Origin: a virus
Lineage: Duplodnaviria > Caudoviricetes
Virus record (IMG/VR): IMGVR_UViG_3300031784_000003
DNA: 64,000 nucleotides
Strand: one strand, 5' to 3'
The notes under the pieces are model-generated. The model saw only the letters and a program-made list of their open reading frames with translations, searched no databases and was not told the origin of the DNA. Shown in pieces: positions 3,025 through 51,154 of the stretch. Position numbers and translations under genes: made by a program. Position 1 is the stretch's first letter; each line of letters starts with the position of its first letter.

Positions 3025-3756
3025 ATGAAGGTAACCATTAAGGGTATTATTAAAGAGAATAGAGAGGATCTACTTATAGATAAAATCGTAGAGAGTTTAT
3101 TGAATGATACTGAATACAAAGTATACCATAGGTTTATGGGAGAGTATGTATGTGAGGTAAAGTTCCCAATGTTTAAGGGATTACCAAGAGTATATGATAG
3201 AGTAGATATTGTTGAGTTTATAAATATGTTTAAGGATCAAAAGGATAGTGAACTAACATCATTTAGATCATCTATAGATTGGAATAATTACCTTGAGAGT
3301 AATTATGGTATGTCAGGTGAACATAATGTGAGTAAGATCGGTATAAGATATTATAATACATTATTCACAAGAATATTAAAGGACTTTGATGATTACCATT
3401 ACGTTCCAGATTATGGTCCTGTTAATGAATCTGTAGATAAAAAGTTAGACGATACAATTAATAGAATAGTAGACTATATGATAGAGGATACTAAATGGGA
3501 TGTATATGAAGAATGGGAAGATGATTGGAGTTATGTGATGGTAACTTTACATTATCCTGGTGGAGAATACGAAAATTATAGAATAGAAGAGATGGAAAGA
3601 GATTGGGATAGGTTTAATTTGTATGAGGGAGACGTTCAATACGTAAAGGATCATTTTGGTATTAATCAAAAATGGATCATAGAAGAACTATATGATAGAT
3701 ACATAAAGAAACTACGTCCTATCATATATGAAGAAATGAAAAATTATGAACTATAA
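3025..3756 (+). CDS. two-module polyprotein (subtype B) with leader
   Basis: Leader MKVTIKGIIKE; IDKIVESLLNDTEY; linker VNESV (nt 3421); INRIVDYMIEDTKW. Confidence 0.8.
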   Translation: MKVTIKGIIKENREDLLIDKIVESLLNDTEYKVYHRFMGEYVCEVKFPMFKGLPRVYDRVDIVEFINMFKDQKDSELTSFRSSIDWNNYLESNYGMSGEHNVSKIGIRYYNTLFTRILKDFDDYHYVPDYGPVNESVDKKLDDTINRIVDYMIEDTKWDVYEEWEDDWSYVMVTLHYPGGEYENYRIEEMERDWDRFNLYEGDVQYVKDHFGINQKWIIEELYDRYIKKLRPIIYEEMKNYEL

Positions 3757-3817
3757 CTATTGACTTTTTAAAATAAAATGTATAATATTATATCATAGTT
3801 GTTTGATTTATTAGTGT

Positions 3818-4017
3818 AGGATCCTTTCCTCATCTCCTCCTCCACCCTAAAGGAGATGATAGTATAAAAGAATGACAGGTTCTTCTTTTATGTGAACAGA
3901 GGATCTTAACATGACAGTCTCCTCAGAGTTCATAGACTGAGTTGAGACAATTGTAAGGAGATAATATAATCATCGGATACTTTAAATAGTTTCACGAAAA
4001 AAATTATCTCCTTTTTT
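3818..4017 (+). ncRNA. candidate structured non-coding RNA
   Basis: ORF-free, with stems 3830-3838/3851-3859, 3864-3872/3883-3891, 3820-3825/3900-3905, 3917-3926/3937-3948 and 3955-3965/4003-4013 plus a T tail. Confidence 0.5.
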
Positions 4018-4028
4018 ATTTACCCTAA

Positions 4029-4060
4029 TTTGATTTTCTAATTTATTATTAGTATATTTG
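4029..4060 (+). promoter_or_regulatory. Bacteroidota-type promoter, no ORF downstream
   Basis: TTTG (4029-4032), 20 nt, TATATTTG (4053-4060). Confidence 0.75.
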
Positions 4061-4098
4061 TTTTATGAAATGATATAGTTACATACATATAATCCTAA

Positions 4099-4230
4099 TG
4101 GGGAGGGGGTATTACTTATACACAGTAAAAACCCCCCCTACTATACGGTAAGGGGGAGGGTCCCCCAGACACCCCCCATCGTATCCCCCCTTCCCTCTGG
4201 GGTAGTTTTTAGTTGTGGGGCGGAGGCGAT
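4099..4230. other. GC-rich island of G and C homopolymer runs
   Basis: GGGAGGGGGT...ACCCCCCCTA...AGGGGGAGGGTCCCCC...CCCCCC in an otherwise very AT-rich window. Confidence 0.7.
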
Positions 4231-4379
4231 GTTGTCCACGAATTTTCCAGGAAATTTTTAAGTTTAGGTTTGAACCTTTTTTTGTTTTATCTCTATAAAT
4301 GATGACACCATTTTTAAACATACCTCTGTAGTCAAATTTTTTTGGGAAATTTTTGTATTTATAATTAAACAATTATATT

Positions 4380-4706
4380 ATGGAGATAAATAGATTTAAA
4401 CAATTATTAGAATCAACAATGGGTAATATAAAACCATTGATTATGGAACAGACAGAAAAAATTGTTTCTTTAAAACAACTTAAAAAAATGGGGTATGATT
4501 ACCCAATGGGATCCGCTCCACCAAAAGGTGATTTAATAGATACTGAGATCAGTTCGGTTGGTAAAACAATTACTTCGGCATCTACGTCATTAATGACTTT
4601 AGTTAGACAAAAAAGTATACCATCAACAAATAATGATGGAATGATATTTAATAAAACCTTGGATAACGGTAATGTTGAGGTTAGGTGGGTGTTATTTAAA
4701 AAATAA
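4380..4706 (+). CDS. leader-bearing hypothetical (putative head cargo)
   Basis: MEINRFKQLLES...LIMEQ; TATTTATA at 4356-4363. Confidence 0.75.
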   Translation: MEINRFKQLLESTMGNIKPLIMEQTEKIVSLKQLKKMGYDYPMGSAPPKGDLIDTEISSVGKTITSASTSLMTLVRQKSIPSTNNDGMIFNKTLDNGNVEVRWVLFKK

Positions 4707-4719
4707 AATCTGTTATAGG

Positions 4720-4795
4720 TTTTTATTGTTCAATATTTAAGGTTGTTCAGTGACAATAAACACCCCTTATGGTTAAAAATTTTTCAGGAAATTTT
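4720..4795 (+). repeat. intergenic repeat A, copy 1
   Basis: TTTTTATTGTTCAATAT..TTGTTCAGTGACAATAAACACCC..CCTTATGGTTAAAAATTTTTCAGGAAATTTT; second copy at 5204-5296. Confidence 0.85.
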
Positions 4796-4846
4796 TAAAT
4801 TTATAATATATTTATAAATAAAATAAAAAAGATTTAAATTAATATT

Positions 4847-5158
4847 ATGAAAAAAACTATTAGACTAACAGAATCAGATTTGAAAAGAATCGTTAAACGT
4901 ATTATTAAAGAAGATGGAGAAGTGGAAGAGGGACAATCAGGTATTTCCATTACTGTACAAGATATATTTAGAGAGGTTACAGATATTCTTAACGACTTTG
5001 GTGGTTATGATGAATCTATGAGAGAAGAGGCAATGGATTTGTCTAAAGATATTATGGATAGATTACAACGATTTGATTTACTTGGGATATTGGCAAACTA
5101 TATTACTGAGAATTATGAGGAATCCATTTATGATATTCTTGGTGATGGAGCATATTAA
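4847..5158 (+). CDS. leader-bearing acidic hypothetical (putative head cargo)
   Basis: MKKTIRLTESDLKRIVKRIIKED; TATTTATA at 4809-4816. Confidence 0.8.
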   Translation: MKKTIRLTESDLKRIVKRIIKEDGEVEEGQSGISITVQDIFREVTDILNDFGGYDESMREEAMDLSKDIMDRLQRFDLLGILANYITENYEESIYDILGDGAY

Positions 5159-6485: not shown

Positions 6486-6489
6486 TCGG

Positions 6490-8412: not shown

Positions 8413-8853
8413 ATGAAAATTATTATTACAGAAAATACTATGGTTAACCTCATTGAAAGAGTGTTAGATTTAGAATATCCAGACTTAACTGAATGTTATT
8501 ACGATTGGGCAAACTATAACTGTGGAATGGGAATATGTTGTGACCCATACGCAGTTGGATTTGTTTTACCTGAGGACGATTATGATCAATACTTATTTAA
8601 ACTTGTGGATGGTAGACACTATAGAGATATGGGTAATTACTCAAAAGAACTTAGTGAAGAACTTCCAGAAGTTTGTTACGAACAACCAAATATATTTGAC
8701 GATAAGTTTGATTATATATTAATTCATGAAGAGATGTTTGAATTATTAGATGATCATTTTAATAATCCTAAAAATTGGTGGAATCAATTATTGATTGTAT
8801 TAAATAAAAAATTTGGTATCAATGCTACTAAAATTGGTATTGGTGTTTTTTAA
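8413..8853 (+). CDS. leader-bearing acidic, Cys-containing hypothetical
   Basis: Start moved from 8389 to MKIIITENTMVNLIER; TATTTATT at 8402-8409. Confidence 0.75.
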   Translation: MKIIITENTMVNLIERVLDLEYPDLTECYYDWANYNCGMGICCDPYAVGFVLPEDDYDQYLFKLVDGRHYRDMGNYSKELSEELPEVCYEQPNIFDDKFDYILIHEEMFELLDDHFNNPKNWWNQLLIVLNKKFGINATKIGIGVF

Positions 8854-13096: not shown

Positions 13097-13702
13097 ATGA
13101 AAGAAATAATAAGAAAAATACTAAGAGAAGAATATAAAAAAATGTCATCATTACCTAAAAACATAATAATTTCTATATACGATGATATTAATATTACATT
13201 ATATGATTACGTAAATAGTAAAGTTTTGGGGTTCGTGGGGTTGTCTAAGAGTAAAGACGGTACATATTATTTTCCTTCGATTGCTGCAGAAAAGGGTTTA
13301 GGTCCAACTGTATTAGAAATCGCATTAATGTTTTGCCATCCTAATGGTTTGATGGTTTCTAGAGACGGAGATATTAGAGGAGATGCATTCAATGTATGGC
13401 AAAAAATGTATTATAGAGACGATGTTATTAAAGAAACATTACCATTAGAAGATAAAAAATTTAATTTTGCTATTATTAGTGGTGAAGAAGAAGAATATGA
13501 AAGTGTGTCTGATAAAATTGAGGAGTTAAACGAATATACTGATGATGGGTTTAAGGAGGCAATTTTAGTTTATAATACTAAAATGTCTATGACACCTACA
13601 AAAGATTACTATAGATTAATAAAAGACGGTATTTTATTGGATCACCATCAGATATTTATAGATGGTAGAGATTTCTTCACATTAAAATATAATTATGAAT
13701 AA
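13097..13702 (+). CDS. leader-bearing protein, possible GNAT-fold
   Basis: MKEIIRKILREE; SIAAEKGLGPTVLEIAL...GDAFNVWQKM resembles the acetyltransferase motif A region. Confidence 0.5.
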   Translation: MKEIIRKILREEYKKMSSLPKNIIISIYDDINITLYDYVNSKVLGFVGLSKSKDGTYYFPSIAAEKGLGPTVLEIALMFCHPNGLMVSRDGDIRGDAFNVWQKMYYRDDVIKETLPLEDKKFNFAIISGEEEEYESVSDKIEELNEYTDDGFKEAILVYNTKMSMTPTKDYYRLIKDGILLDHHQIFIDGRDFFTLKYNYE

Positions 13703-15726: not shown

Positions 15727-16494
15727 ATGAAAAAAAGAGTAATAAAATTAACTGAAAACCAATTAAATAATATAGTTAAATCTGTTTTAAATGAAGGATA
15801 TGTAAATCTAGTTGGTCCAAGTGACGATATTTGTGAAATTGTATGTAAAAGAAAAGTTGCAGCAAAAGGATCTACAGGTGATATAGTTAAAATGATACAA
15901 CACCTTTTATCGGTAAACAAGTATAATCCTAAATATAGTGGTGGGGGTATGACAGGTGACTGGTGTTATACTGACTGGAGAAGATGTGATGGTATTTTTA
16001 AAGGTCATACTGAAGACGCAGTGAAAGAACTTCAAGCAGCATTAGGTGAGAAATATGGTTTAGTTGTTGACGGAATAGTGGGGTATAGAACTTGGTACGC
16101 AATGTGTACAACTTTACAATTTACTAAATCATTATCTAAAAATAAATTTTGTGTAGATTGTCAATGTAAACAAAAAAGAGACGATGGTAAAGATTCTGAT
16201 TTAATATTTGATCCAATACAACCTATTAGAGATGTGGATTGTGATGTTTTAAAAGATTGTGTTGCCAAATATTTATATACAACAACCCCTAATTTAGATG
16301 AGTTTCAGAAATGTGCTCAAATTAAAAGTGTGGGTGATGGAAAAGTATTTTCGTGTTCACTTTGTAAATCATCTTTCCCAACAGGATATGTTGATAAAAT
16401 GCCGAAATCAGTTGTAGGTTCTGAAAAACAAATGACTGATTTATTAGGTGATTGGTGTCTTAAAAAATGTGATGGATATAAAAAAGCGTATTAA
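15727..16494 (+). CDS. peptidoglycan-binding-domain protein, Cys-rich, with leader
   Basis: KGSTGDIVKMIQHLL...GIFKGHTEDAVKELQ...LVVDGIVGYRTW PG_binding_1 pattern; leader MKKRVIKLTENQL..VLNEG. Confidence 0.8.
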   Translation: MKKRVIKLTENQLNNIVKSVLNEGYVNLVGPSDDICEIVCKRKVAAKGSTGDIVKMIQHLLSVNKYNPKYSGGGMTGDWCYTDWRRCDGIFKGHTEDAVKELQAALGEKYGLVVDGIVGYRTWYAMCTTLQFTKSLSKNKFCVDCQCKQKRDDGKDSDLIFDPIQPIRDVDCDVLKDCVAKYLYTTTPNLDEFQKCAQIKSVGDGKVFSCSLCKSSFPTGYVDKMPKSVVGSEKQMTDLLGDWCLKKCDGYKKAY

Positions 16495-16495: not shown

Positions 16496-16735
16496 ATGAA
16501 AAAAATTATTATAACTGAAAACCAATTAAAAAAAATAATTAACGAATCATTTTATAACCCAAATAAGTTATATAGTAAACAATTTGTTGAAAATGTAACT
16601 ATGAAGGCACCTAGAGACATTAAAAATATAGTTAAAAGTTTAGAAGTTGTAGGATGTGTGGACGGAGCAGGTAATTTAAGTCAATGTGTTAAAATACCAG
16701 AAGTTCTATTTATTTATATTAGTGGTAGGTATTAA
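16496..16735 (+). CDS. leader-bearing hypothetical, 79 aa
   Basis: Start moved to MKKIIITENQLKKIINES. Confidence 0.8.
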   Translation: MKKIIITENQLKKIINESFYNPNKLYSKQFVENVTMKAPRDIKNIVKSLEVVGCVDGAGNLSQCVKIPEVLFIYISGRY

Positions 16736-17027: not shown

Positions 17028-17429
17028 ATGAAAATCAAAAAAAATGGTAATATTATAGAACTTTCCGATTCAGAATTAAAAAGAATTGTGGAAAATAGTG
17101 GTAATGTAGATGAGGGGATAAAATCTACATTTAAAGGTATCGGTGGTATGTTTAAAGGGACAGGATATAGTTATACTAAATATGCTTACGAATTAACTGC
17201 ATCTTTGAAGGACATTAATGAAGAATTAGAAGAAACTATAATACAGTTAGAAAAAATATTAGATAAATCGAATAGATCTAGTATGACAAACCAATCATAT
17301 GAAAGATTATCCAAACACATTGCGGAGGCATTAGAAGGATACCAAATGGTTATAGAAACTAACGAAATTATAATTGAGGATTTGGATAACTCTGTTACAT
17401 CAGAAAGAGATACTGAAAGACCTAGATAA
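17028..17429 (+). CDS. leader-bearing coiled-coil hypothetical
   Basis: IELSDSELKRIVENS; TATTTATA at 17006-17013. Confidence 0.75.
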   Translation: MKIKKNGNIIELSDSELKRIVENSGNVDEGIKSTFKGIGGMFKGTGYSYTKYAYELTASLKDINEELEETIIQLEKILDKSNRSSMTNQSYERLSKHIAEALEGYQMVIETNEIIIEDLDNSVTSERDTERPR

Positions 17430-17761: not shown

Positions 17762-18334
17762 ATGACGGTAATTAAAAAAATATTAAAGGAATTTGCCCAA
17801 CAAAATATTGTAGATAGAATTTATGATATGATTAAAGATGAGTTTTCTTTAAAAGATGGGAAAGTGACTACAAGTTTAATAGATTTAGAGGGGAATCCTA
17901 TAGTGCCTGATTCAAGAAGTGGGTTAAATATTCAGTTAAAAAAAAATAGTATATTTGCAGAAAGAGTTATAGATTTTATATCACATTCTTTTGGGGTATC
18001 TAATAGTGATGGTGAAAAAGTATATAATTTAATATCGTTCAATCTAAAAAAAGATAATTTTGTAGATAATTTACCACATATTTTATTTGAGGATTTTTTT
18101 GAACATAGTAATAATGTTTTTACTATCGATATGAGTTTATATGACGATAGAATTCAAAAGAGATTAGATGTTAGGAAGATAGATGATTTTTTAGAGTTAG
18201 TAACTTGGAATGGTTTATATGATTATGATGCTCACGATAATATTAGGTTAAATTTTGAGGATTATTTAACTGATGAGGATTATTTATATATACAAGAAGA
18301 ATTATTAGATTTAATAGAGTATAATAAGTTATGA
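17762..18334 (+). CDS. leader-bearing hypothetical
   Basis: MTVIKKILKEF; TATTTATA at 17740-17747. Confidence 0.75.
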   Translation: MTVIKKILKEFAQQNIVDRIYDMIKDEFSLKDGKVTTSLIDLEGNPIVPDSRSGLNIQLKKNSIFAERVIDFISHSFGVSNSDGEKVYNLISFNLKKDNFVDNLPHILFEDFFEHSNNVFTIDMSLYDDRIQKRLDVRKIDDFLELVTWNGLYDYDAHDNIRLNFEDYLTDEDYLYIQEELLDLIEYNKL

Positions 18335-19275
18335 TAAAAAGTGTGATTAAAAAAATATTGTTGGAGTTTCAAGGAGACTCAAATGAAGATGAAGATGATG
18401 TAGATGCATATGGGGATTTATTTCCTGAAAATACATATCAAAAGTTATTTAAAATAATTGATTCTGATCCAGAAAAATTTATGTCAACAACATTAAAAGA
18501 TTTATCTTTAGGGTCAATAGATAAAGAATTTAATATTATATATAAATATTTAACTGAGTATAAAGAAAGAACCCCTTATTATATACCTGTAGTATTTAGT
18601 GCGAGAGAAATTTCAGAATTTTTTAGGGATGGGGATTATGGTATGCAAACAATAGTTAAAGATTTATTAGTTGGGGATTATGATTATGGTATAGATTACG
18701 AATGTTTTGATGTAGATGATTGGTTGATAGACAGAATAGATAGTGAAAATATGAATAAACTGAAAAAACTTTATTTAACGGACTTGGATACGGAAGAAAG
18801 TGAAGAAGATTTTAAAGAGTTTATTGAAAGTGAATTTGATAGTGATATTGGTTGTGCTGCAGGAGACGCACAACATAGTGCAGATATTGATTATTTACAT
18901 TCTGAAATAAAAGACGAGATAAACGATTATTTGAGTAGGTTTAACGGTAAATTAACAAATAAAATAGGGAATGATGATAGAATAAATAGTGAGTTAGAAT
19001 ATGTTGGTGAGATAGAATTTGGAGAATTGTCAGATAACCCTTATTTCTTTGAGGTTACATATGAGGAACTTGAATCATCTTATCCTAATATTATTGATAT
19101 TTTTTGGAAAATTATTGAGTTAGAACGTGATTATGGTGGGAGGGGTGATGAATTTTTACCTGAAGAACAAATAAGAATAAATGAAGATAAACATTTTAGA
19201 TACGGTGGTGCTGGAGATATTGATTGGGGGTACTTCAACGAAATTCTAAGTGATAAGTTATCTATGTATAACTAA
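18331..19275 (+). CDS. leader-bearing highly acidic protein
   Basis: MIKSVIKKILLEF; D/E-rich; loosely similar to 40018..41034. Confidence 0.75.
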   Translation: MIKSVIKKILLEFQGDSNEDEDDVDAYGDLFPENTYQKLFKIIDSDPEKFMSTTLKDLSLGSIDKEFNIIYKYLTEYKERTPYYIPVVFSAREISEFFRDGDYGMQTIVKDLLVGDYDYGIDYECFDVDDWLIDRIDSENMNKLKKLYLTDLDTEESEEDFKEFIESEFDSDIGCAAGDAQHSADIDYLHSEIKDEINDYLSRFNGKLTNKIGNDDRINSELEYVGEIEFGELSDNPYFFEVTYEELESSYPNIIDIFWKIIELERDYGGRGDEFLPEEQIRINEDKHFRYGGAGDIDWGYFNEILSDKLSMYN

Positions 19276-20396: not shown

Positions 20397-21392
20397 ATGA
20401 AAAGACTGATACAATATATATTAAAAGAAGAAGTGAGAAACCAAAATGTAAAAAAGTTTTTAGACTATGTAGTTAATAATTTTTTAGATAGTTTAGTTTT
20501 AAAAACTGACCTTAGTGAAAGATCTTTTGAATCTATTAGTGAAATGTTAGATTTAGGTATATTAAATGATGAATATGATCAATTAATAAATAATCCTGAA
20601 CTGTTCGGGGCATACGGATGGGTTCATGTATATGATGAGGAAGAAGATGAAGATTATTTTTATCATAGAGAAAATGGAGATGATCCAGAAAATTATATTA
20701 GTGTAGGTGAGTGGCATTTAGAAGTAGGGTACGATTGGTTAGATGATATGGTTAACACAGGTGATTTAGGATGGGATGAAGAAAGAGAAGTTTGGTTTTT
20801 AACTCATCCAGACATATTAGTTAAAACCGAAGATAATAGATTTTCTTTCCCTTTATGGTGGAATCCGTTTAATAGAAAATACGATGCACCTTACATAAAC
20901 AACCCTAATAATAGAACTTACTTAATGAGATTTATACAAAGTTACGGTGTTGATGGTAGTAATAATATGTATGATATTATGGACATTATTTGGGAATCTA
21001 TTCCAGATAAAGTAGATAGTTTACTTAGGGAGAAAAATTTGATAAGTGAAGGTATAATTGACAATTTTATTGATTTTGGTAAAAACTATTTATCATTACC
21101 AGATAACTTTAAAATAGTATTAACTGACAACGGTAGTGATATAGATACATTAGGTAATTATAATATCGAAGATAAGACAATAAAAATTTTAACTAAAAAT
21201 AGGGCGGTTCCTGATATAATTAGATCAATTGCGCATGAAATGGTACATCATCAACAAAATGATAGAGGGGATTTAAAAGGTAGTCCAGAAGAGGGAGAAA
21301 CAGGATCTCCTTGGGAAGATGAGGCGAACGCAAAGGCAGGGAAATTAGTTAGAGATTTTGGTGAAGAAAATCCTGAGATTTATGATCTATAA
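20397..21392 (+). CDS. leader-bearing two-domain protein with C-terminal HExxH metallopeptidase-like domain
   Basis: MKRLIQYILKEE; internal LISEG; SIAHEMVHHQQ...WEDEANA. Confidence 0.7.
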   Translation: MKRLIQYILKEEVRNQNVKKFLDYVVNNFLDSLVLKTDLSERSFESISEMLDLGILNDEYDQLINNPELFGAYGWVHVYDEEEDEDYFYHRENGDDPENYISVGEWHLEVGYDWLDDMVNTGDLGWDEEREVWFLTHPDILVKTEDNRFSFPLWWNPFNRKYDAPYINNPNNRTYLMRFIQSYGVDGSNNMYDIMDIIWESIPDKVDSLLREKNLISEGIIDNFIDFGKNYLSLPDNFKIVLTDNGSDIDTLGNYNIEDKTIKILTKNRAVPDIIRSIAHEMVHHQQNDRGDLKGSPEEGETGSPWEDEANAKAGKLVRDFGEENPEIYDL

Positions 21393-22614: not shown

Positions 22615-23124
22615 ATGAAAATAATAATTAGAGAAAGTCAATTAAAAAGACTAATGAATGAAATAGGTGGATATGATACCACTGATTTAATGGCACATCA
22701 TGGTGGAGACATTCAATCAACATTGTTAGCATTGTTTAATCAAACGGCATCATATATATCGGATCTATTAGTAGGTATTAAAAGTGGTGAGATGGATAAA
22801 GAAAATTACTTAGCATTCGCCCATAATATGTCAAAAAAAATAGGTAATGATTTAAGTATAATGGACTCATATATTGGAGAAATTTACATTGATGATGATT
22901 TTAAAAAACATGTGATAAAATATAGAAACGCTTTACAAAAGTTTCTAAATACATTAAGATTATTATACGATGAAGGTTCAGGTTTAGGTATAGAGATGTC
23001 TAAAAATGAAATCTACAGTATACTGATGAATGAGGTTGATAAACTTAGCTCTGTTATGGAGCCGTTAGCAGCATTATTCTATCAAGTTCATGGTAGATTT
23101 AGAAAAAGATTGGGTCTGGACTAA
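22615..23124 (+). CDS. leader-bearing helical hypothetical
   Basis: MKIIIRESQLKRLMNEI; TATTTATT at 22594-22601. Confidence 0.8.
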   Translation: MKIIIRESQLKRLMNEIGGYDTTDLMAHHGGDIQSTLLALFNQTASYISDLLVGIKSGEMDKENYLAFAHNMSKKIGNDLSIMDSYIGEIYIDDDFKKHVIKYRNALQKFLNTLRLLYDEGSGLGIEMSKNEIYSILMNEVDKLSSVMEPLAALFYQVHGRFRKRLGLD

Positions 23125-27103: not shown

Positions 27104-27253
27104 ATGAAAATGAAAAAGGGTAAAAAAACTATTAGATTAACTGAATCGGAAATGGTAGGACTTATTGAGACTATTGTTAATGAAGTTAAAAGAGAGAAAA
27201 GAGAACAAATTGCTGAATCTAGAAATCCTAAAAAAAGAAGGTATTTAAGATAA
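27104..27253 (+). CDS. 49-aa leader-rich peptide with basic tail (not in ORF track)
   Basis: MKMKKGKKTIRLTESEMVGLIETIVNEVKREKREQIAESRNPKKRRYLR. Confidence 0.75.
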   Translation: MKMKKGKKTIRLTESEMVGLIETIVNEVKREKREQIAESRNPKKRRYLR

Positions 27254-40017: not shown

Positions 40018-41034
40018 ATGAGAAATATTATAAAAAAAATATTAAGAGAAAGTACTGAAACACCTAAAAGAGTTTTTAGGTATATAGATAGTATTGTAGA
40101 ACATTTTGAATGGGACATAGATTCAATAATGGAAGATTTGGAACAAAATTTAAATCTGTCAAAGGTTGACGCATATACTTTGTTATTTGAATATTATATC
40201 AGTAAGGGTGATGACCCAACAAAAGACATTGATTTTCAGGATATAACTTACTATGTATATACAGAAGATTTACTTAAAATATTAAATAATAGTGGTTGGT
40301 TAGATAAATATCTAAAAAATAAAGACTCATTTCCAAGAGATTTTAGAGACATTGAGGAGATTGGTGATGGTGAAAGATTTATTCTTAAACTTGATGATTG
40401 GGAGGAGTTTAAATGTTTATTTGATGATGATAATTTGGCGCAAAGAGTTTTAAATTCTGATTGGGCAGAACTATATGGTTGGTTTGATGTTGATTTCTCA
40501 GATGATATTGTAGATATATTAAATAAAGACACAATAAAACATATTCAAGAATATGTAAAAGAAAAAGGTTTAATAGGTAAGGAACTAGAAAATAGTGATG
40601 GTGAGGTGTTAACAGAAGAAATGGTTAATGATGAGGGTATTTTACTAGAACTGATAGGTGAAGATGAATTATTTTATGATTTAAAAGATCTTTTAGAAGA
40701 TGCATATAGAGTCTCATACGATTCTGCTGCCGAAGATGAAATTTTTAAAATATTAGAAGGTCATATAACTTCTTTTTTTGGTAACAAACCTGAATGGGTA
40801 GATGGAAACAAATTACATATAGATGTTACTACAATTTTTTACGACTTTTTAGTTAGGTATTTAACCAATAAGGGTGAAATGCCTAGTTTTTCACAAAGTT
40901 ACTTCTTGGATGTAATTTGTGAAACTTTAGAAGAAGAAGACGGAAAATTAATTACGCCCGATATGGGTTACTTTTATCCTGATAGTGATTTAGTTGCAGA
41001 ACATTTAAGTGACTACATAAAATCTAATATATGA
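40018..41034 (+). CDS. leader-bearing acidic protein
   Basis: MRNIIKKILRES; TATTTATT at 40005-40012. Confidence 0.8.
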   Translation: MRNIIKKILRESTETPKRVFRYIDSIVEHFEWDIDSIMEDLEQNLNLSKVDAYTLLFEYYISKGDDPTKDIDFQDITYYVYTEDLLKILNNSGWLDKYLKNKDSFPRDFRDIEEIGDGERFILKLDDWEEFKCLFDDDNLAQRVLNSDWAELYGWFDVDFSDDIVDILNKDTIKHIQEYVKEKGLIGKELENSDGEVLTEEMVNDEGILLELIGEDELFYDLKDLLEDAYRVSYDSAAEDEIFKILEGHITSFFGNKPEWVDGNKLHIDVTTIFYDFLVRYLTNKGEMPSFSQSYFLDVICETLEEEDGKLITPDMGYFYPDSDLVAEHLSDYIKSNI

Positions 41035-43037: not shown

Positions 43038-44966
43038 ATGGCAAAAAAGACAATATTCCAGCAATTGACAGATTTATTCGGTCCAGAAGTGAAAAGGGAA
43101 CAAAATAAATCTAGATATTCAATTAACGATAAAGAGTTATTACGAACCAAATCAAAGGAAGAATACGAATTTGAGAAATTAAAAAAACAACAAGACGCCT
43201 ACCTTTCAAATATGTGGCAAAAGGTTGATAATGAAATTTACCAGCATTCGATTTATTATGAAACAACTAGATTAGCGTCGTACGCAGATTTTGAGGGTAT
43301 GGAATTTTTTCCAGAAATTTCTGCAGCATTAGATATTATGATGGAAGAATCTACTACTTTAAATTCAGAAAATAAAATGATTACTATTTTTTCCGAAAGT
43401 AAAAGGGTTAGAAGGATATTAGAGGATTTATTTTTTAATCGATTAGATATACACACATCATTACCTATGTGGACAAGAAATACATGTAAATATGGTGATA
43501 ATTTTTTATTCCTAAATATTGATAGTGAAGATGGAATTTTAGGTGTTAAACAACTACCTAATATTGAAATATCTAGAAAAGAAAATGAAGGATTTGGTGA
43601 AAACTCTATGAACTCTGATACGGATAAGTATAATCCTGTAAAATTTATTTGGGGACAAAGGGATATAGAATTTAATGCGTGGCAAGTTGCACATTTTAGA
43701 CTTTTGGGGGATGATAGAAGATTACCTTACGGCACATCAATGTTAGAAAAGGCTAGAAGGATATGGAAACAATTACTATTATCAGAAGACGCAATGTTAA
43801 TATATAGAGTAACAAGGGCACCTGAAAGAAGGATATTTAAAATCTATGTCGGTAACATTGATGAACAAGATGTTCCTGCATATGTAAACAAAATCGCAAA
43901 TAATTTTAAAAGAAGTCCTGTTATTGATCAAAAAACTGGACAAATAGATTCTAGATATAATCAAATGGCACAGGATCAGGATTATTTTATACCTGTAAGG
44001 GATCCTAACGCACCTAGTCCAATAGATACACTACCTGGAGCAACTAATTTATCTGAAATTGCAGATATACAATATTTACAAAAAAAGTTATTCACATCAC
44101 TTAGGGTACCTAAACCTTTTTTAGGTTTTGAGGAGGCAAATGGTGAAGGTAAAAATTTAGCGTTACAAGATATTAGATTTGCTAGAACAATTAATAGGAT
44201 ACAACAATCAATGTTGCAAGAATTAAATAAAATTGCTATCATACATTTATATATTTTAGGTTTAGAGGATGAATTAGAGAATTTTACCCTTACACTTAAC
44301 AACCCATCAACACAGGCAGAAATGCTTAAAGTAGAACAAACACAATTAAAAGTTACTTTATATAAAGACGCAGTTGCAGATGCGGGTAACGGTTTTGGTG
44401 CAATGTCAATGACTAGAGCTAAAAAAGAAATTTTAGGTATGTCAGAAGAAGAAATTAGAAATGATTTAGAACAACAAAGATTAGAAAAGGCGGCAGCTGC
44501 GGAAATGGAACAAACGGCTGAAGTTATTAAAAAGACAGGTATCTTCGATAGAGTAGATAGATTATATGGTGATTTTGACGCATTAGTGTCAGGTGCTGGA
44601 GAAGCTGAAGCGGGTGGTGACACTGGAGGTGGTGACACTGGTGGTTTAGGTTCAGACACTGGTGGTTTAGGCGGTGGTGACACTGGTGGTTTAGGCGGTG
44701 GTGCAGAATCTGGTGGTGCAGAATCTGGTGGTGCCGCACCAACAGAAGAGTCTACTAATAAAAAAGATAATCTATTATTAGAAACTAAAAAAAGAAATTA
44801 CGAAGAAAAAGTTAAAAGATATCAGGGTATATATTTGAAAAGATTGACTGAAAGTTTAGAAAAAAATGAGAACAATTATAATTTAGAATCATTTGAAAAA
44901 AGTGCTGATACCCTTAATTCTAAAATCAATGAGATTACAAATCAAATTGACAATATGATTAATTAA
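43038..44966 (+). CDS. portal protein (T4 gp20-like)
   Basis: EDAMLIYRVTRAPERRIFKIYVGN, QDYFIPVR, IDTLPG, YLQKKLF..LRVP. Confidence 0.95.
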   Translation: MAKKTIFQQLTDLFGPEVKREQNKSRYSINDKELLRTKSKEEYEFEKLKKQQDAYLSNMWQKVDNEIYQHSIYYETTRLASYADFEGMEFFPEISAALDIMMEESTTLNSENKMITIFSESKRVRRILEDLFFNRLDIHTSLPMWTRNTCKYGDNFLFLNIDSEDGILGVKQLPNIEISRKENEGFGENSMNSDTDKYNPVKFIWGQRDIEFNAWQVAHFRLLGDDRRLPYGTSMLEKARRIWKQLLLSEDAMLIYRVTRAPERRIFKIYVGNIDEQDVPAYVNKIANNFKRSPVIDQKTGQIDSRYNQMAQDQDYFIPVRDPNAPSPIDTLPGATNLSEIADIQYLQKKLFTSLRVPKPFLGFEEANGEGKNLALQDIRFARTINRIQQSMLQELNKIAIIHLYILGLEDELENFTLTLNNPSTQAEMLKVEQTQLKVTLYKDAVADAGNGFGAMSMTRAKKEILGMSEEEIRNDLEQQRLEKAAAAEMEQTAEVIKKTGIFDRVDRLYGDFDALVSGAGEAEAGGDTGGGDTGGLGSDTGGLGGGDTGGLGGGAESGGAESGGAAPTEESTNKKDNLLLETKKRNYEEKVKRYQGIYLKRLTESLEKNENNYNLESFEKSADTLNSKINEITNQIDNMIN

Positions 44967-45005: not shown

Positions 45006-45767
45006 ATGGAAAATTTTGGGAATATAAAAGACACATTTAAAAAAATAATTTTAGAATCTGTGATCAAAAAAGATGAGGACGGCAAAAAATTATTTACTTC
45101 ATTTATAAAAAATTTAAAAGAGAATAAAACACTTAAAAACCAATTCTTAATATATAAAAATTTAGAGAGTAGAAAATTTGAGGATAGACTAGAGGCTAAA
45201 GAATATATACAAGAAAATATTAAATTACTTAAAGAATTAAATAGTGAAGATATTGAGAAAGGTAACTCAAAATTAATTAATCTTTTAAAAGGTAAAAAAA
45301 TAGTAAAAGAAAATGATTCTTTTTATAAAGATATCACATATCTAAGTAGAGTTACTAAAACACCTTCAAACATAGATAAAATAAATGAATCTATGAATAA
45401 TTTAGTTAATCATATGTTAACTAAAGTTGATGAGGTTAGTAAAACAGATAATGTCGCAATTTCACCAACAATTTTAACTAATTTGATGGTTAATAAATTT
45501 AATGAAAAATATAGTGAAATTAGTGAGTCAGATAAAAAGTTAATTAAATCTTTCTTAAACGATGATAAAGAAAAAACTTTTAATAGTTTAATTAGAGAAT
45601 GTATTGATTCTGTAGATAAAAAATTAAATGAAAGTAGTGATTTTGAAATCAAAGATAAACTTTTAAAAGTAAAAGATAAATTATTAAATACAAAATTCGA
45701 TAAAGATAATTTCTTAAATGATATAATTAAATTTAATAATCTTAAAGAAACAATAAATAACGAATAA
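45006..45767 (+). CDS. helical head-module protein, unknown function
   Basis: Between portal and protease; IILES, INES, LNES sites; TATTTATT at 44986-44993. Confidence 0.7.
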   Translation: MENFGNIKDTFKKIILESVIKKDEDGKKLFTSFIKNLKENKTLKNQFLIYKNLESRKFEDRLEAKEYIQENIKLLKELNSEDIEKGNSKLINLLKGKKIVKENDSFYKDITYLSRVTKTPSNIDKINESMNNLVNHMLTKVDEVSKTDNVAISPTILTNLMVNKFNEKYSEISESDKKLIKSFLNDDKEKTFNSLIRECIDSVDKKLNESSDFEIKDKLLKVKDKLLNTKFDKDNFLNDIIKFNNLKETINNE

Positions 45768-45770
45768 ATT

Positions 45771-45796
45771 AACCCTCTTAGTGAGGGTTTTTTTTT
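45771..45796 (+). terminator. intrinsic terminator
   Basis: AACCCTC-TTAGT-GAGGGTT followed by T run. Confidence 0.8.
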
Positions 45797-45873
45797 AACA
45801 TAATTTGACAATTTAATTTTTTTTTAGTATACTTTTACCAAATTTAAATAACAAAATATGATTAGAAAGATTA

Positions 45874-46311
45874 ATGAAATTAGGAAAAGAGATAAAATTA
45901 GATTTATTAGAAAATTATAAAACTAAAATAGGGACAGTTAACAACAAAGAATCAAAAAGTTTATATTTAAACTTTACCGCTTGGGGGGAAATATTAGAAG
46001 ATAATAAAGAACAAAATTATGACACTTTTTTAAGTGGTGTCAGAAAAAAAATAAAACAAAACTTAAACAACAATCTCGATAAAAATTTATTCTTTAATGA
46101 TAGGTATATCGTAGATTTAGATATGAGAACTTCAGGATTCAACATAAATAAAAGGAGTTTTATGTCGTGTGAAATCACACTATTCCAGAAAAAGAATCTA
46201 CCTATCAATCAAACAATAATACTTGAAAATTCAAAAAACATTATTTATGATGTAATAAATAATTGTTTTGAAGGTAATAACGTTTTTAAATTTCATAAGT
46301 CTAAAAAATAA
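45874..46311 (+). CDS. hypothetical protein, 145 aa
   Basis: Leaderless ORF inserted in the head module. Confidence 0.75.
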   Translation: MKLGKEIKLDLLENYKTKIGTVNNKESKSLYLNFTAWGEILEDNKEQNYDTFLSGVRKKIKQNLNNNLDKNLFFNDRYIVDLDMRTSGFNINKRSFMSCEITLFQKKNLPINQTIILENSKNIIYDVINNCFEGNNVFKFHKSKK

Positions 46312-46357: not shown

Positions 46358-47047
46358 ATGGAAATTTTAAAAAAAAACGATATCAAAAAAAAAGGTATCC
46401 TCATCGAATATGATGCAGGATACATTTCTCCAAAAGATAATAGACATTTTGTAAACGAAGTAAATAAATTAACTCAAGGTCAACCTATAATAGAAGAACC
46501 TTTAGTTGTTTACGCAGTTATGCAAAAATATGGGGTAGAAAATAGAAATGAAAGAGTTTACCCTGAAGCCATTTTACGAAGAGAGGCAGAAAATTATTTA
46601 AAATTAATCAAAGAAAAAAGAGCGTTAGGTGAGGCGGATCATCCAGAATCATCTATAGTTGCGATAAGTAGGATTTCTCACAATGTAGTTGATTTGTGGT
46701 GGGAAGGTAATGTCCTTATGGGTAAATTAGAAATAATTATGTCACCAGGATTTGTCAATCAAGGTATTATTTCTTGTGAGGGTGATAAAGTTGCAAATTA
46801 TATTAGAAAAGGTTTAAAGATTGGTGTTTCTTCCAGAGGTGTTGGGTCATTAGAAAAAGAAAATGGTAGAAATGTTGTACAAGACGATTTTGAATTAATT
46901 TGTTGGGATATCGTTACATCACCATCAACTCCGGGATCTTGGATATATAGTGAAGAACCTTCTAAAGAACAACAAATGTCTGAGTCTACTAATAAGAAAA
47001 ATTCTGATGATTTGAAAAATGGGTTAACTAATTTTTTAATGGATTAA
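46358..47047 (+). CDS. prohead maturation protease (T4 gp21-like)
   Basis: NRNERVYP, ALGEADHP, GVSSRGVGSL, WDIVTSPS. Confidence 0.93.
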   Translation: MEILKKNDIKKKGILIEYDAGYISPKDNRHFVNEVNKLTQGQPIIEEPLVVYAVMQKYGVENRNERVYPEAILRREAENYLKLIKEKRALGEADHPESSIVAISRISHNVVDLWWEGNVLMGKLEIIMSPGFVNQGIISCEGDKVANYIRKGLKIGVSSRGVGSLEKENGRNVVQDDFELICWDIVTSPSTPGSWIYSEEPSKEQQMSESTNKKNSDDLKNGLTNFLMD

Positions 47048-47146: not shown

Positions 47147-48454
47147 ATGGCTGAAAAAAAGAAATCTATCATCGAAGAGGCTTTGCTAGAAGCTAAGTCC
47201 TTAGAGGATGCCTTAAAAGCCAACACGAAAGAAATGCTTTCGGCACACTTGTCGAAAGAAATTGAGAGTATCGTTGAGTCGTCTTTAAAAGAAGAAGATG
47301 AAGAATTAGATGACGATGCTAATTTAAAAGGATCCGAAGATGAGAATGAGGTTGAGTTAGATCTTGACGATGAAGAAAGTACCGAAGAACCAGAAGAAGA
47401 GTTAGATCTTGATTCTTTAGAAAATTCAGAAGAACCAGTTGATTTAGATTTAGATGTTGATTTAGATTTAGATGCTAATGAGGAAGATGAAGATGAGGAA
47501 GAAGAAGATTTTAATCTTAATTTAGGTTTAGAACCTGGTGACGATGAGGAAGTGTTAGACTTAACAGGTGCTTCAGACGAAGAGGTTATCCATGTGTTTA
47601 AAAACAAATTAGGGGATAACGATGAAGTTGAGGTGGTTAAAGATCCAAGTGGTGGTATTCATTTAACAGATAACGAAACAGGAGTAGAGTATTACATTAA
47701 GGAATCTATGGGAGATAGATTTGGTTTTGAGGAAGAAGATGAAGAAGAAGAAAAAGAGTATTGCTCTGAATGTGGGTCAGGATCAATGTATGAAAATGAT
47801 GAAACAATTTATGAAATTCATTTAGACGAAGATTCTCCAATGTATGAAATGTTTAAGGATAAAACCGAAGAAAACTATGATGCAATGGGTGAAGGGGCTT
47901 ACATTGATGAGGAAGATACACTTGATGAGGACAGATTGCAAAGACACAGAAGAAGTGGTGGAAAACAAAGATATCACGGAGCTAGATTTGCAGCAAGAGA
48001 ATCTAAAAATGTTCGTAAACCTTTAATCACTAAAAAACCAAACACAGACACAGTTTCCGAGTCAAAAATAATTAAAGAATATAGAGAGCTTAAAGCTAAA
48101 AATGAAGAATATAAAAAGGCTCTTAATATATTCAAAGACAAACTTAATGAAGTTGCTTTATTTAATACCAACTTAGCGTATGTTAATAGATTGTTCACAG
48201 AACATTCTACAACAAAGAATGAAAAGATGGATATTTTAAAAAGATTTGATAATGCAGAAACTATTAAAGAATCTAAAAATATTTATAAAACGATAAAAAC
48301 TGAGTTGGATAATAAAAAACCAATTAATGAGTCTGTTCAAAATAAAGTTAATAAAACAGTAAAATCTTATAATACTAATAATTTGAACGAATCAACTGCA
48401 TATGTTGATCCACAAATTACGGCTATTAAAGATTTGATGAGAAGAATCTCATAA
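47147..48454 (+). CDS. prohead scaffold/core protein (gp22-like)
   Basis: Very acidic plus coiled coil, between protease and capsid; PINESV (48323) and NLNEST (48383). Confidence 0.8.
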   Translation: MAEKKKSIIEEALLEAKSLEDALKANTKEMLSAHLSKEIESIVESSLKEEDEELDDDANLKGSEDENEVELDLDDEESTEEPEEELDLDSLENSEEPVDLDLDVDLDLDANEEDEDEEEEDFNLNLGLEPGDDEEVLDLTGASDEEVIHVFKNKLGDNDEVEVVKDPSGGIHLTDNETGVEYYIKESMGDRFGFEEEDEEEEKEYCSECGSGSMYENDETIYEIHLDEDSPMYEMFKDKTEENYDAMGEGAYIDEEDTLDEDRLQRHRRSGGKQRYHGARFAARESKNVRKPLITKKPNTDTVSESKIIKEYRELKAKNEEYKKALNIFKDKLNEVALFNTNLAYVNRLFTEHSTTKNEKMDILKRFDNAETIKESKNIYKTIKTELDNKKPINESVQNKVNKTVKSYNTNNLNESTAYVDPQITAIKDLMRRIS

Positions 48455-48492
48455 TAAATAATAATAAAATAACAAAACAAAAAAAATAAAAA

Positions 48493-50232
48493 ATGGGACA
48501 TTTGTTAAATTCTGGTGAAGTCGGTAATATTGGACTTGAGCACCTAAAGCAAATTAGATCTAAAACTATTACTAAATGGAATTCATTAGGATTCTTAGAT
48601 GGTTTAAAAGGTCATATTAAAGAGAACATCGCACAGTTGTATGAAAACCAAGCGTCTGCTCTATTGAACGAATCAACTGATGCTGGTTCTTCTGGATCAT
48701 TCGAAACAGTTGTTTTCCCAATTGTAAGAAGAGTATTCTCTAAATTATTGGCTAACGACATCGTATCGGTACAAGCGATGAACATGCCAATCGGTAAATT
48801 ATTCTATTTCGTACCTAAAACATCTAACGGTTCATTTGACTTAAATGGTAATGCAACTAACGGTTCTTTACCTGAATGTGTTGTATCTGGATGTGGTGTT
48901 ACGGTAACTGAATTTAGAGCAAAAAATCTTTACGATTTATTTTACAATGATGGATTATTTGACGCATCTAAAGGTAAAAAAACAGTTTATAATGGTGGTT
49001 TAAGACCAGTAGTTTTAAATTCTGATGGTGAAAAAGTTACTACTGCATTTGCTAGTCAACCAAAAGCGGCTGATGGTTCATTTAGAAACCTTAAAGCGGC
49101 TATCACTGGTTTTTCTTCAACAAACGCTGGTAGATTAACTGGACCAGACGGAAATGAGATGGATACTGAATCTTTCTTAGCGTCATTAACACTTACTTCT
49201 GATAACGCAATCTTAGATAAAGATGGTAAAACTATCATTAGTGCTGGTGGTGTAGTTCCTTTCAGATTAGTAAGTCAAAAATATGGTAGAGGTATCGTAG
49301 ATTACACTAACATTTGTAGTCCTGATGGAGAACTTTTGGTAGAGTTAGATTTAACTCACCCAGCATGTATCGATTGTGGTTCTTCTAACTTTGATGGTTA
49401 TATTGGAGCTGCTAGTGGTACATCATTTACAGGTTTATCTGTATCTTGGTCTAGATATGAAACATTAGAATTCGCTACAGAAATGGGTGAAGTATCTTTT
49501 GAATTAGATGAGGTAGTTGTATCGGTTACTGAAAGAAAACTAAGAGCTACTTGGTCTCCTGAATTAGCACAAGACGTTAGTGCATTCCATAACATTGATG
49601 CTGAGGCTGAACTTACGGCTTTATTGTCTGAGCAGGTTGCTGCTGAGATCGATAGAGAGATCTTAAGAGATTTAAGAAAAGGAGCGGCTTGGCAATTGAG
49701 ATGGGATTACAACGGATGGAAAAGAGCTAATAACGGTGGTGGTTTCAACGCATACACTCAAAAAGAGTGGAATCAAACGTTGATTACTAAAGTTAACCAA
49801 ATCTCTGCTCAAATCCATAAATCAACTTTGAGAGGTGGAGCAAACTTTATCGTTGTTTCTTCTGAAGTATCAGCAATTTTCGATGATTTAGAATACTTCC
49901 ACGTATCAAACGCTTCTCCAGAGCAAGATCAATACAATATGGGTATTGAGAAAATTGGTTCATTAGGTGGTAGATATACTGTGTATAGAGATCCATACGC
50001 ACCAGCTAACTCAATAATCATTGGACATAAAGGTAAGTCATTGTTAGATACAGGGTACATTTACGCACCTTACGTACCTCTTCAATTGACTCCAACATTA
50101 CAAAATCCATTCAACTTCGCACCTACTAAGGGTATCATGACGAGATACGCTAAGAAAATGGTGAACAACAGATTCTACGGAACTGTTACTGTTGACGGAG
50201 TTGTAACTTTTGATTTAAATGAATTAAGATAA
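48493..50232 (+). CDS. major capsid protein (T4 gp23-like)
   Basis: VQAMNMPIGKLFY, RKLRATWSPELAQD, EIDREI, YAPYVPL, GIMTRY. Confidence 0.96.
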   Translation: MGHLLNSGEVGNIGLEHLKQIRSKTITKWNSLGFLDGLKGHIKENIAQLYENQASALLNESTDAGSSGSFETVVFPIVRRVFSKLLANDIVSVQAMNMPIGKLFYFVPKTSNGSFDLNGNATNGSLPECVVSGCGVTVTEFRAKNLYDLFYNDGLFDASKGKKTVYNGGLRPVVLNSDGEKVTTAFASQPKAADGSFRNLKAAITGFSSTNAGRLTGPDGNEMDTESFLASLTLTSDNAILDKDGKTIISAGGVVPFRLVSQKYGRGIVDYTNICSPDGELLVELDLTHPACIDCGSSNFDGYIGAASGTSFTGLSVSWSRYETLEFATEMGEVSFELDEVVVSVTERKLRATWSPELAQDVSAFHNIDAEAELTALLSEQVAAEIDREILRDLRKGAAWQLRWDYNGWKRANNGGGFNAYTQKEWNQTLITKVNQISAQIHKSTLRGGANFIVVSSEVSAIFDDLEYFHVSNASPEQDQYNMGIEKIGSLGGRYTVYRDPYAPANSIIIGHKGKSLLDTGYIYAPYVPLQLTPTLQNPFNFAPTKGIMTRYAKKMVNNRFYGTVTVDGVVTFDLNELR

Positions 50233-50258
50233 TCTTAATTTAAAATAAAGGTAAAAAG

Positions 50259-50290
50259 GGGTAGAAATTTTCTACCCTTTTTTATTTTTT
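50259..50290 (+). terminator. intrinsic terminator after the capsid gene
   Basis: GGGTAGAA-ATT-TTCTACCC followed by T run. Confidence 0.85.
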
Positions 50291-50317
50291 ATAATATTTA
50301 TTATTATATTTGTATCT

Positions 50318-51154
50318 ATGAGAATTAAAAAGAAATACGTATTGTTAGAATCTAGGTTAATAGATGTCACATCAGAATTTACTCCACAAGAAAAAAGAAT
50401 TTTAGAAATGTTATATAAAAAATATGGTGTAAGTACATCAGATTTTAATATGTGGAATGTTGCAATAGAATTAATAGAGGACTTTAATTTAGACTACGAA
50501 ACTGCATATTCTTTAGCGAGAACATTTAGTTGGTCCGCTAGAGAACTATTTTCAGAATTCCAACCAATACGTAAAACTATGCCAGTTTATAAATTATTTT
50601 TTGAGAATATTTCTAATTTAATTGAAAGTTATTCCAAAAATAATGAAAATAATTTTACTGTTAGATTAAAATTTAACGGTGATGTTGGTACAGAATCATT
50701 AGAAAATAGAGAGGTGTCATTAAATTCAGGTTATAGGGGTTTCTATATGTATATACCTCTAGAACAATATATAGAAACAGAATATAGGAGATATTACGTC
50801 ACAGGTGAAGATCATGACTTCAGAACTTTATCTGTATCAATAAATTTTAACCCAATAGATTTAAACGGTGAAATACGTGAATTAAGTTATTTTAGTTCAG
50901 ATGAGAGTGAAGATGTAAATACAGAAGAATTTATGGTATCTGTAAAGTATAGAGACATCACCCAATCTATATATGATGATTCAAGTCAAACAAAATTAAT
51001 GTCATTTAAAGTACCTTACCCTAAACCTTTAACTAAAGAAAATATTTTAAATACATTCGATTCAATTATAAAAGATGTTTTAGAATATATGTCTAATACA
51101 ACATTTGATTTACCTGAAGGGGCAAAACCAATAGATATAAATGATTTAATGTAA
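50318..51154 (+). CDS. leader-bearing hypothetical
   Basis: MRIKKKYVLLES; TATTTATT at 50295 and TATATTTG at 50305. Confidence 0.75.
   Translation: MRIKKKYVLLESRLIDVTSEFTPQEKRILEMLYKKYGVSTSDFNMWNVAIELIEDFNLDYETAYSLARTFSWSARELFSEFQPIRKTMPVYKLFFENISNLIESYSKNNENNFTVRLKFNGDVGTESLENREVSLNSGYRGFYMYIPLEQYIETEYRRYYVTGEDHDFRTLSVSINFNPIDLNGEIRELSYFSSDESEDVNTEEFMVSVKYRDITQSIYDDSSQTKLMSFKVPYPKPLTKENILNTFDSIIKDVLEYMSNTTFDLPEGAKPIDINDLM

Follow-up and report, generated by a model that had tools for sequence, protein, structure and literature searches.

Why do many unrelated proteins encoded in one stretch of phage DNA begin with nearly the same short peptide? The stretch, called the window below, comprises 64,000 nucleotides of a virus of the Caudoviricetes (IMG/VR record IMGVR_UViG_3300031784_000003). 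It has 28% G+C throughout and encodes a head module of the phage T4 type. The original prediction, made from the sequence alone, was that about 25 of its proteins carry a leader like a capsid-targeting sequence, ending in the cleavage motif of the capsid and scaffold proteins. The present analysis supports this in part. Judged from sequence comparison, the leader is probably, with considerable room for doubt, a capsid-targeting propeptide of the kind found on T4 internal proteins.

Sixteen genes of the window carry a firm leader (Table 1; genes are referred to by coordinate), which comes in two types. Type A (10 genes) has the form M-K-(K)-I-I-[ITRK]-[LI]-T-E-[SN]-[QD]-[LF]-K-R-[LIV]..[ILV]-x-E, and type B (6 genes) has the form M-K-x-I-I-[RK]-[RK]-I-L-[KR]-E (MKxIIRKILKE). 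In a six-frame scan the type A pattern matched eight times, in all eight cases 2–9 residues past the ATG of a called plus-strand gene. The type B pattern matched seven times, six of them at N-termini. A hidden Markov model (HMM) of the leader, trained on database proteins only, found the type A leaders of the window with E values from 1e-15 to 0.03, and the best reversed-protein control reached 0.11. The type B leaders were aligned to positions 12–23 of the type A model, and type B therefore appears to be the helix half of type A, starting directly at the methionine.

All 16 N-termini quoted in the original prediction sit where it had placed them, and two type A cases absent from it, 17028 and 27104, were identified. 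Its figure of about 25 bearers was too high: about 16 are firm, and about ten further N-termini (3025, 4380, 10435, 15440, 19288, 21781 on the minus strand, 23341, 38521, 45006 and 50318) are loosely similar, sharing only a hydrophobic-x-E(S) pattern. Since [LIVM]-x-E begins at 2.7% of all window positions, the mere presence of [ILV]-x-E in the first 25 residues is close to what chance would give. It is the invariant positions and the drop of conservation past the second Glu that carry weight, not the bare [ILV]-x-E. No firm leader was found on the early genes, the tail genes or the capsid gene, which is the most highly expressed.

At the same leader positions, silent codons vary (Ser TCA/AGT; Leu TTA/CTA/CTT/TTG; Arg AGA/CGA/CGT/AGG; Ile ATT/ATA) and the amino acids are kept, so selection appears to act on the peptide rather than on the DNA. 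In a 304-kb relative with 31% G+C (G025), some rare codons recur at fixed positions of the leaders (L130-L144). Leu7 is CTA in 6 of 15 leaders (7% genome-wide), Thr8 is ACC in 6 of 14 (13%) and Arg18 is CGA or CGT in 8 of 13 (17%). This recurrence could reflect shared ancestry or a constraint on the mRNA.

The leader is spread far beyond the window. With a profile built from the ten type A leaders and a cut-off of E<=0.001, 468 protein clusters, defined at 50% identity, were matched among 1.84 billion cluster representatives. Among the best 150 matches, about 130 begin at residue 1, with protein lengths of 30–751 residues. The database consensus is MKKvIRLTESDLvRIVKRVInE. In 107 database proteins, the information content is 2–3.9 bits per column from M1 to E22, 0.95 bits at the next residue (P1') and 0.2–0.4 bits beyond. 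The first Glu (E9) is invariant in these proteins and is followed by Ser (LTE/S, the slash marking the candidate cut) in 96 of them. The second Glu (E22) is present in 86, with [IVL]-[NKS] before it. The two Glu are spaced by 13 in 116 of 193 motif copies. Two to four copies were found in 50 of the 150 database proteins, and the internal copies often follow a stretch of the form ...E-S-(K/R)n, which gives the impression of leader–cargo units joined in series. One match, the 6935-residue P0002 with seven matching stretches, was rejected as a repetitive false positive arising from weak partial matches. The cargo domains recognized among 149 database matches include LysM (3), PG_binding_1, WG_beta_rep, MORN and GNAT besides others, and most of these proteins have no recognized domain. 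The contigs encoding two of the profile matches are only 2–4 kb long and lack useful gene context. No Pfam family covers the leader, and a full-text literature search for the motif strings returned no relevant paper.

A DNA-pattern scan of IMG/VR found at least 120 leader-bearing stretches. Among the matches listed, an S77 protease is encoded in 24 of the 35 leader-bearing contigs longer than 60 kb and in all eight complete (>=90%) relatives. Each of five complete relatives (257–412 kb) has 8–24 type A leaders; type B leaders number 3–14 in four of the five, and none was found in the fifth (G015). The more distant, uncultured 484-kb phage LR756508.1, which has an S77 protease, gave five weak leader matches, all at Met1 (for example MRLTESKLKKLV...LTE). 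The window sequence itself is present in lake, reservoir and drinking-water metagenomes of at least 14 studies, and it was found in no RNA run.

The end of the leader had been claimed to match the motif at which the capsid and scaffold proteins are cut. This was confirmed as a match of sequence only: LTE/S fits the consensus of the protease very well, and [IVL]-[NKS]-E/x marks the point where conservation ends. When the capsid protein was aligned to mature T4 gp23 (456 residues), residue 69 paired with mature residue 25, and the T4-equivalent cut falls before N45, directly after I42-K43-E44. The sites of the capsid propeptide are kept in five of five relatives, as [IL]-K-E/N at 42-44 and as L-[IL]-[NY]-E/[SA]-T at 57-60. 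The three [IL]-x-E/S sites near the scaffold C-terminus keep their positions, and their P2 residue differs between genomes. The gene at the position of T4 gene 67 starts with ...KKIILE/S in the window and ...NILIE/S in G025 (q134290). Because the capsid, scaffold and gp67-position sites are conserved, the protease of this clade very probably cleaves behind [IL]-x-E and prefers Ser as the following residue. This predicted rule equals that of T4, and the Ser preference resembles that of phage SPN3US (PMC10052503). Ser is 2.1-fold enriched after [LIVM]-x-E in the window. NES occurs 24 times in the window versus 7.4 expected, a figure partly inflated by an INESVD repeat family at 2237-9382, and 40 times in G025 versus 35 expected, so the enrichment is not genome-wide there. 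The case therefore rests on the position-conserved sites instead.

A family of paralogous modules of about 95 residues was noticed at 2237-13068 (genes 2237, 3025, 5331, 6558, 9065, 9473, 10140 and 11896). Each module begins with YLDKIVxxIVDDT, which in multi-module proteins is preceded by (I/L)NES-VD-RR. A site of the protease type thus stands before a conserved helix.

The head genes provide the setting that a capsid-targeting propeptide would need. In the window the order portal, core, core, protease, scaffold, capsid equals that of T4 genes 20-67-68-21-22-23, with the core and scaffold genes assigned from position and composition only. The first core-position gene (45006) has KINE/S and KLNE/S inside. 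The nearest GenBank capsid proteins belong to LR756508.1 (43% identity) and Flavobacterium phage immuto (41%), and the capsid proteins of the five complete IMG/VR relatives are 65–67% identical to that of the window. The structural block (34-64 kb) is syntenic with G025. In contrast, the cargo region at 2-27 kb is almost without orthologues there, so the cargo turns over while the leader is kept.

The leader genes also share an upstream element. The genes of the terminase, portal and protease and gene 45006 have the motif ATATTTAT 12–40 nucleotides (nt) upstream, and the scaffold gene has it at 68 nt. Two minus-strand structural genes are preceded by it too, and about 29 window genes have it in all. 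It precedes 10 of the 16 leader genes versus 19 of 70 others (Fisher p=0.016). Among the leader genes without it, 15727, 16496, 18331 and 20397 follow a gene with ATATTTAT on the same strand, and 27104 and 37509 have the variant CATATAAAT upstream. At 8413, the motif 12 nt upstream fixes the start of the gene. ATATTTAT ranks first among the 8-mers upstream of genes in G025, where it precedes 72 of 411 genes and more than half of all its occurrences lie within 50 nt of a gene start. ATATTTAT, an upstream motif found across the clade, is probably a late or middle promoter element of the phage. The host-type element TAnnTTTG, of the Bacteroidetes kind, precedes a set of genes other than that of ATATTTAT. 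Genes behind host-type promoters had been said to lack the leader; this is true (0 of 12 TAnnTTTG genes), but not significant alone (p=0.11).

The proteins behind the leader are unrelated, as had been claimed: no BLASTP match at E<0.01 was found among the cargo parts of the 25 candidates. The protein of 25432 has viral leucine-rich-repeat proteins as its nearest Atlas clusters (score 0.96–0.97), and the Atlas lead for 20397 goes to clusters of the IrrE/M78/SprT type (score 0.93, IrrE/M78-like). The orthologue of 4847 in G025 (51% identity) retains the leader. All 22 orthologues of 24565, down to 45% identity, retain it too, with L14 and E17 invariant, and no other segment of the 23-sequence alignment is as well conserved as the leader. 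When this alignment was given to AlphaFold2, the predicted local distance difference test score (pLDDT) was about 47 for residues 1–20, with a short helix at 7–14, and 89–95 from about residue 21 on. The predicted fold begins near residue 21-25, and the Pfam lysozyme domain starts at residue 30. In this model the leader lies outside the folded cargo domain, as expected of a docking or cleavage peptide. The leader helix is strongly amphipathic, and only 0.45% of shuffled sequences attain its hydrophobic moment of 0.83.

Table 1. Leader genes and head genes of the window. A slash marks the candidate cut or the end of the leader.
Coordinates	Strand	Feature	N-terminus or sites	Other evidence
4847..5158 (leader 4847-4912)	+	type A, 103 residues	MKKTIRLTESDLKRIVKRIIKE/D	HMM E=1.3e-15; ATATTTAT 39 nt upstream
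8413..8853	+	type A	MKIIITENTMVNLIERVLDLE	regex at Met+2; HMM E=0.0016
15727..16494	+	type A, PG_binding_1 cargo	MKKRVIKLTENQLNNIVKSVLNE/G	HMM E=3.8e-11; PF01471 at residues 51-126
16496..16735	+	type A, 79 residues	MKKIIITENQLKKIINE/S	HMM E=4.1e-07; regex
17028..17429	+	type A variant	…NIIELSDSELKRIVE/NS	HMM E=8.7e-04; ATATTTAT 23 nt upstream
22615..23124	+	type A	MKIIIRESQLKRLMNE/I	regex; HMM E=0.002; database relatives P0028, P0049
24565..25380	+	type A, tail-lysozyme and SH3 cargo	MRIIVTESQFKRVLLTE/T	PF18013 at 30-177, SH3_3 at 206-265
25432..27069	+	type A, 545-residue leucine-rich-repeat-like cargo	MKIIIKESQFRVLLRE/D	regex; weak LRR_4
27104..27253	+	type A, 49-residue basic mini-protein	…KKTIRLTESEMVGLIETIVNE/V	HMM E=7.7e-12; relatives P0058, P0102, P0107
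37509..37790	+	type A, inside structural block	MKNKIRLYESEIKRAVRRKLME/R	HMM E=1.4e-10; relatives P0014, P0040
7921..8310	-	type B	MKRIIRRILKE/E	HMM positions 12-23, E=0.0022; ATATTTAT 13 nt upstream
13097..13702	+	type B	MKEIIRKILRE/E	regex at N-terminus; ATATTTAT 17 nt upstream
17762..18334	+	type B	MTVIKKILKE/F	regex
18331..19275	+	type B, very acidic cargo (net charge -47)	MIKSVIKKILLE/F	regex
20397..21392	+	type B, metallopeptidase-like cargo	MKRLIQYILKE/E	HExxH (HEMVH) at residue 280
40018..41034	+	type B, directly upstream of large terminase	MRNIIKKILRE/S	regex
41195-42988		large terminase		
43038..44966	+	T4 gp20-type portal		PF07230 (Portal_T4), 4.9e-79
45006..46311 (45006, 45874)	+	two small genes at the T4 prohead-core 67/68 position		gene order
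46358..47047	+	S77 (T4 gp21-type) prohead protease		PF03420 (Peptidase_S77), 2.6e-24; phrog_207
47147..48454	+	very acidic scaffold candidate	three position-conserved [IL]-x-E/S sites in the C-terminal part	
48493..50232	+	gp23-type major capsid protein	propeptide I42-K-E44/N and L57-L-N-E60/S	PF07068

The motif, its N-terminal position, its boundary and spread, the protease, the head-protein sites and the shared upstream motif were observed at the sequence level, and from them we infer docking, cleavage, packaging and ejection. The head would be built on a T4-like core consisting of the portal, two small core proteins, the S77 protease and the acidic scaffold. Many unrelated late proteins would each start with a basic module of about 22 residues, made of a short strand (KvIRLT) and an amphipathic helix (ESDLvRIVKRVInE), or of the helix alone in type B. 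This module would dock the protein into the assembling core. The protease would then cut the leader at [ILV]-x-E, after E9 (LTE/S) and/or after E22 (v-I-n-E/x), and the freed cargo would stay in the head and enter the host with the DNA. Such cargo would range from peptidoglycan-binding and lysozyme domains, through a leucine-rich-repeat protein and one resembling a metallopeptidase, to small basic peptides.

All that a T4-like capsid-targeting tag predicts at the sequence level was found, namely the protease, the synteny, the sites, the boundary, selection on the peptide and the shared upstream motif. The predicted position of the leader outside the cargo fold and the fast turnover of the cargo are further points in its favour. 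The claim of such a tag is nevertheless supported only in part, and several observations weigh against it. Various residues follow E22 (S, Q, N, D, E, R, G; in the window also F, I, V), a spread that fits the E/S preference of the scaffold less well. The cargo is mostly acidic, with net charges of -3 to -47, and T4 internal proteins are basic. Some of the very acidic proteins may belong to the core as auxiliary components, which are cut into pieces and lost, and not be injected effectors. The domain arrangements seen at 24565 (lysozyme with SH3) and 15727 (PG_binding_1) are also typical of endolysins. These two proteins could be endolysins, which would not need packaging, and so they count against a packaging role. 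A tblastn search of the leader against 50,697 GenBank phage records gave one chance-level match and no cultured phage with the leader. Flavobacterium phage immuto has the same types of protease (S77) and capsid and no such leader, so the head system does not require it. The leader-bearing genomes are all related; their shared S77 protease is therefore confounded by descent and is not independent evidence.

Could the same observations arise without cleavage? The leader could be a permanent N-terminal handle that holds the proteins to one shared partner (for instance the scaffold or core, the inner wall of the capsid, the portal or another phage assembly), with the Glu serving a structural purpose (helix cap, salt bridges). 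We consider this unlikely, and yet it explains several features well. An amphipathic strand-plus-helix that is modelled with low confidence alone is what would be expected of a peptide folding on its partner. The diverse residue after E22 would need no explanation, the internal copies in 50 of 150 database proteins indicate that the module works away from the N-terminus too, and in the repeat family at 2237-13068 the helix follows the INE/S junction instead of preceding it. On the other side, conservation stops exactly at an [IVL]-x-E that matches the capsid and scaffold sites of the phage itself, LTE/S is nearly invariant, and the same layout is cut in T4 (PMC9026906). The leader could also be a recognition tag for the ClpC/ClpB-like AAA+ unfoldase encoded at 27339-29834 on the minus strand, or for a host Clp, through which the proteins would be unfolded, degraded at a set time or handed over. 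Clp typically recognizes short N-terminal peptides that are basic and hydrophobic. The 831-residue protein (Clp_N, two AAA+ modules and ClpB_D2-small) sits between the cargo region and the head block, and it is kept in G025 at 59% identity, adjoining the structural block. However, nothing specific ties the leader to this ATPase, and the G025 orthologue lacks the first ~165 residues including the Clp_N domain. A Clp tag also would not account for the match to the protease motif and is quite improbable.

Two explanations would deny the peptide a function altogether. The leader DNA could be a shuffling junction, that is, a homology patch for cassette swaps, or a mark of shared ancestry or recent duplication. 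The fast turnover of cargo between relatives, the recurrence of some non-preferred codons (CTA, ACC, CGA/CGT) in the G025 leaders and, as a noisy observation, the breaks and short matches that contigs of other lakes show at leaders and promoters would agree with it. It has very little probability when set against silent sites that vary freely with the amino acids kept, both within one genome and between genomes, and against a motif kept in 468 clusters and in lysozyme orthologues down to 45% identity, which indicates purifying selection on the peptide. Leader DNA fixed at its silent sites, the strict form of the junction, was rejected by the silent-codon variation. Where reads met leaders and promoters, many short joints and loose ends appeared, their sides shorter than 30 nt; these are most likely cross-matches of paralogous leaders and of promoter repeats that come from related phages, and they were not used as evidence of recombination. 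The leader could also be an artefact of composition or translation, with AT-rich codons and an MKK start favoured in Bacteroidetes. The low G+C content, the commonest window residues (K, I, E, L, N) and the near-chance frequency of [ILV]-x-E within 25 residues point that way. This is scarcely credible and largely refuted already: reversed controls did no better than E=0.11 versus 1e-15 for real leaders, 22 columns carry 2–4 bits each, and the motif is missing from the early, tail and capsid genes.

The capsid-targeting propeptide that we favour has a clear model in T4. There, N-terminal capsid-targeting sequences of 10-19 residues bring the internal proteins to the core, gp21 takes these sequences off, and the set of internal proteins varies among T4-type phages (PMC9026906). 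The leader described here resembles the T4 sequences (IPI, IPII, IPIII and Alt) as a short N-terminal peptide with a hydrophobic-x-Glu end on unrelated, probably late proteins. The S77 protease, the order portal-core-protease-scaffold-capsid and a cargo set that varies between related phages are shared as well. In contrast, and to the disadvantage of this assignment, it has no similarity to MKTYQEFIAE beyond the MK and the final hydrophobic-x-E. By sequence it would therefore not belong to the T4 capsid-targeting sequences, and would be either analogous or only very distantly related to them. It is also about 22 residues long (11 in type B), strongly basic and amphipathic, with two candidate cut sites, and the module recurs inside multi-module proteins. 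It has at least 16 bearers in 64 kb, and 8–24 of type A in each complete relative, versus four in T4.

Phages like phiKZ (SPN3US gp245, phiKZ gp175; PMC10052503) are also jumbo phages with a protease related to T4 gp21, and many of their head proteins are cut at x-x-Glu with a preference for Ser at P1'. However, they cut after A/S/G-x-E, whereas I, L or V stands at P3 here. Most of their propeptides are long (111-254 residues), with no common short leader on unrelated proteins, and about 80% of the SPN3US head proteins are uncut (PMC10052503). The cargo-loading peptides of encapsulins likewise are short and portable and bring diverse cargo into a shell of the HK97 fold. In contrast to what is proposed for the leader, these peptides usually stand at the C-terminus, attach to the shell itself and stay on the cargo, uncut by any protease; encapsulins have no portal, scaffold or DNA. 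The principle is already known from T4 and would be used here on a much larger scale. What is specific to the present case is a bipartite leader of 22 residues with a truncated variant, a sharp boundary, at least 468 clusters and many bearers per genome.

A wider reading, which we put forward only tentatively, is that in this lineage of freshwater Bacteroidetes jumbo phages any protein with the tag, at its N-terminus or between modules, would be loaded, cut free and delivered. Each genome would then have 20–40 fast-evolving cargos, including cell-wall enzymes, leucine-rich-repeat binders and a metallopeptidase. If so, the capsid would be a protein-delivery device at a scale not described for T4-type phages. 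In a bolder variant, the neighbouring ClpC-like unfoldase of the phage would read the tag and feed the cargo into the prohead. If the tag works as in T4, the packaged or injected proteins of widespread uncultured lake phages could be read from sequence, and genes for host takeover and anti-defence in Bacteroidetes would be sought first among the hypervariable cargo genes. The leader profile would annotate hundreds of hypothetical proteins, and, as soon as a member is in culture, the leader would offer a candidate tag for packaging proteins into phages of Bacteroidetes.

Several other features of the window were observed. The capsid protein (48493-50232) has 579 residues, and about 200 of them (~110-320) separate the two segments that align to T4 gp23; an insertion domain specific to the lineage is therefore probable. 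In G025, a 61-residue gene like bS21 (MLIVRVNKNGDIEKALKELKSKV...) lies on the opposite (minus) strand between portal and protease (C1 ~135000-135190). A bS21 gene in such an arrangement is a mark of bS21 jumbo phages of freshwater Bacteroidetes (PMC9723584). No bS21-like gene was found at the portal–protease position of the window, and in this the window phage resembles the bS21-less outgroup of that study.

The ClpC/ClpB-like protein at 27339-29834 has a UVR motif, and both ATATTTAT and TAnnTTTG lie upstream of its gene. In the middle of the cargo region, 22030-22530 on the minus strand encodes a 166-residue protein behind a host-type promoter. It has a signal peptide of the Bacteroidetes type (MVMKNIFVLIIVGLVYSSLNAQ) and, as a product of the infected cell, is predicted to be secreted or to sit in the outer membrane. 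The thymidylate synthase at 31949-33169 (406 residues) exceeds the usual length and carries an insertion and an extension at its C-terminus; its Pfam match is split into two stretches over residues 6-308. Near its N-terminus, the 620-residue protein of 35238-37100 has TLNE/S and MLNE/S; further features are a long acidic tract containing PVGDTEE repeats, an internal KKVLREE/R like type B and a Cys-rich patch. Its C-terminus consists of two repeats of SPVKxPGIxxPxTKPPREKxPWETIKRPxVDPRPKA, partly conserved in G025 (q126280). This protein is a candidate core or ejection protein.

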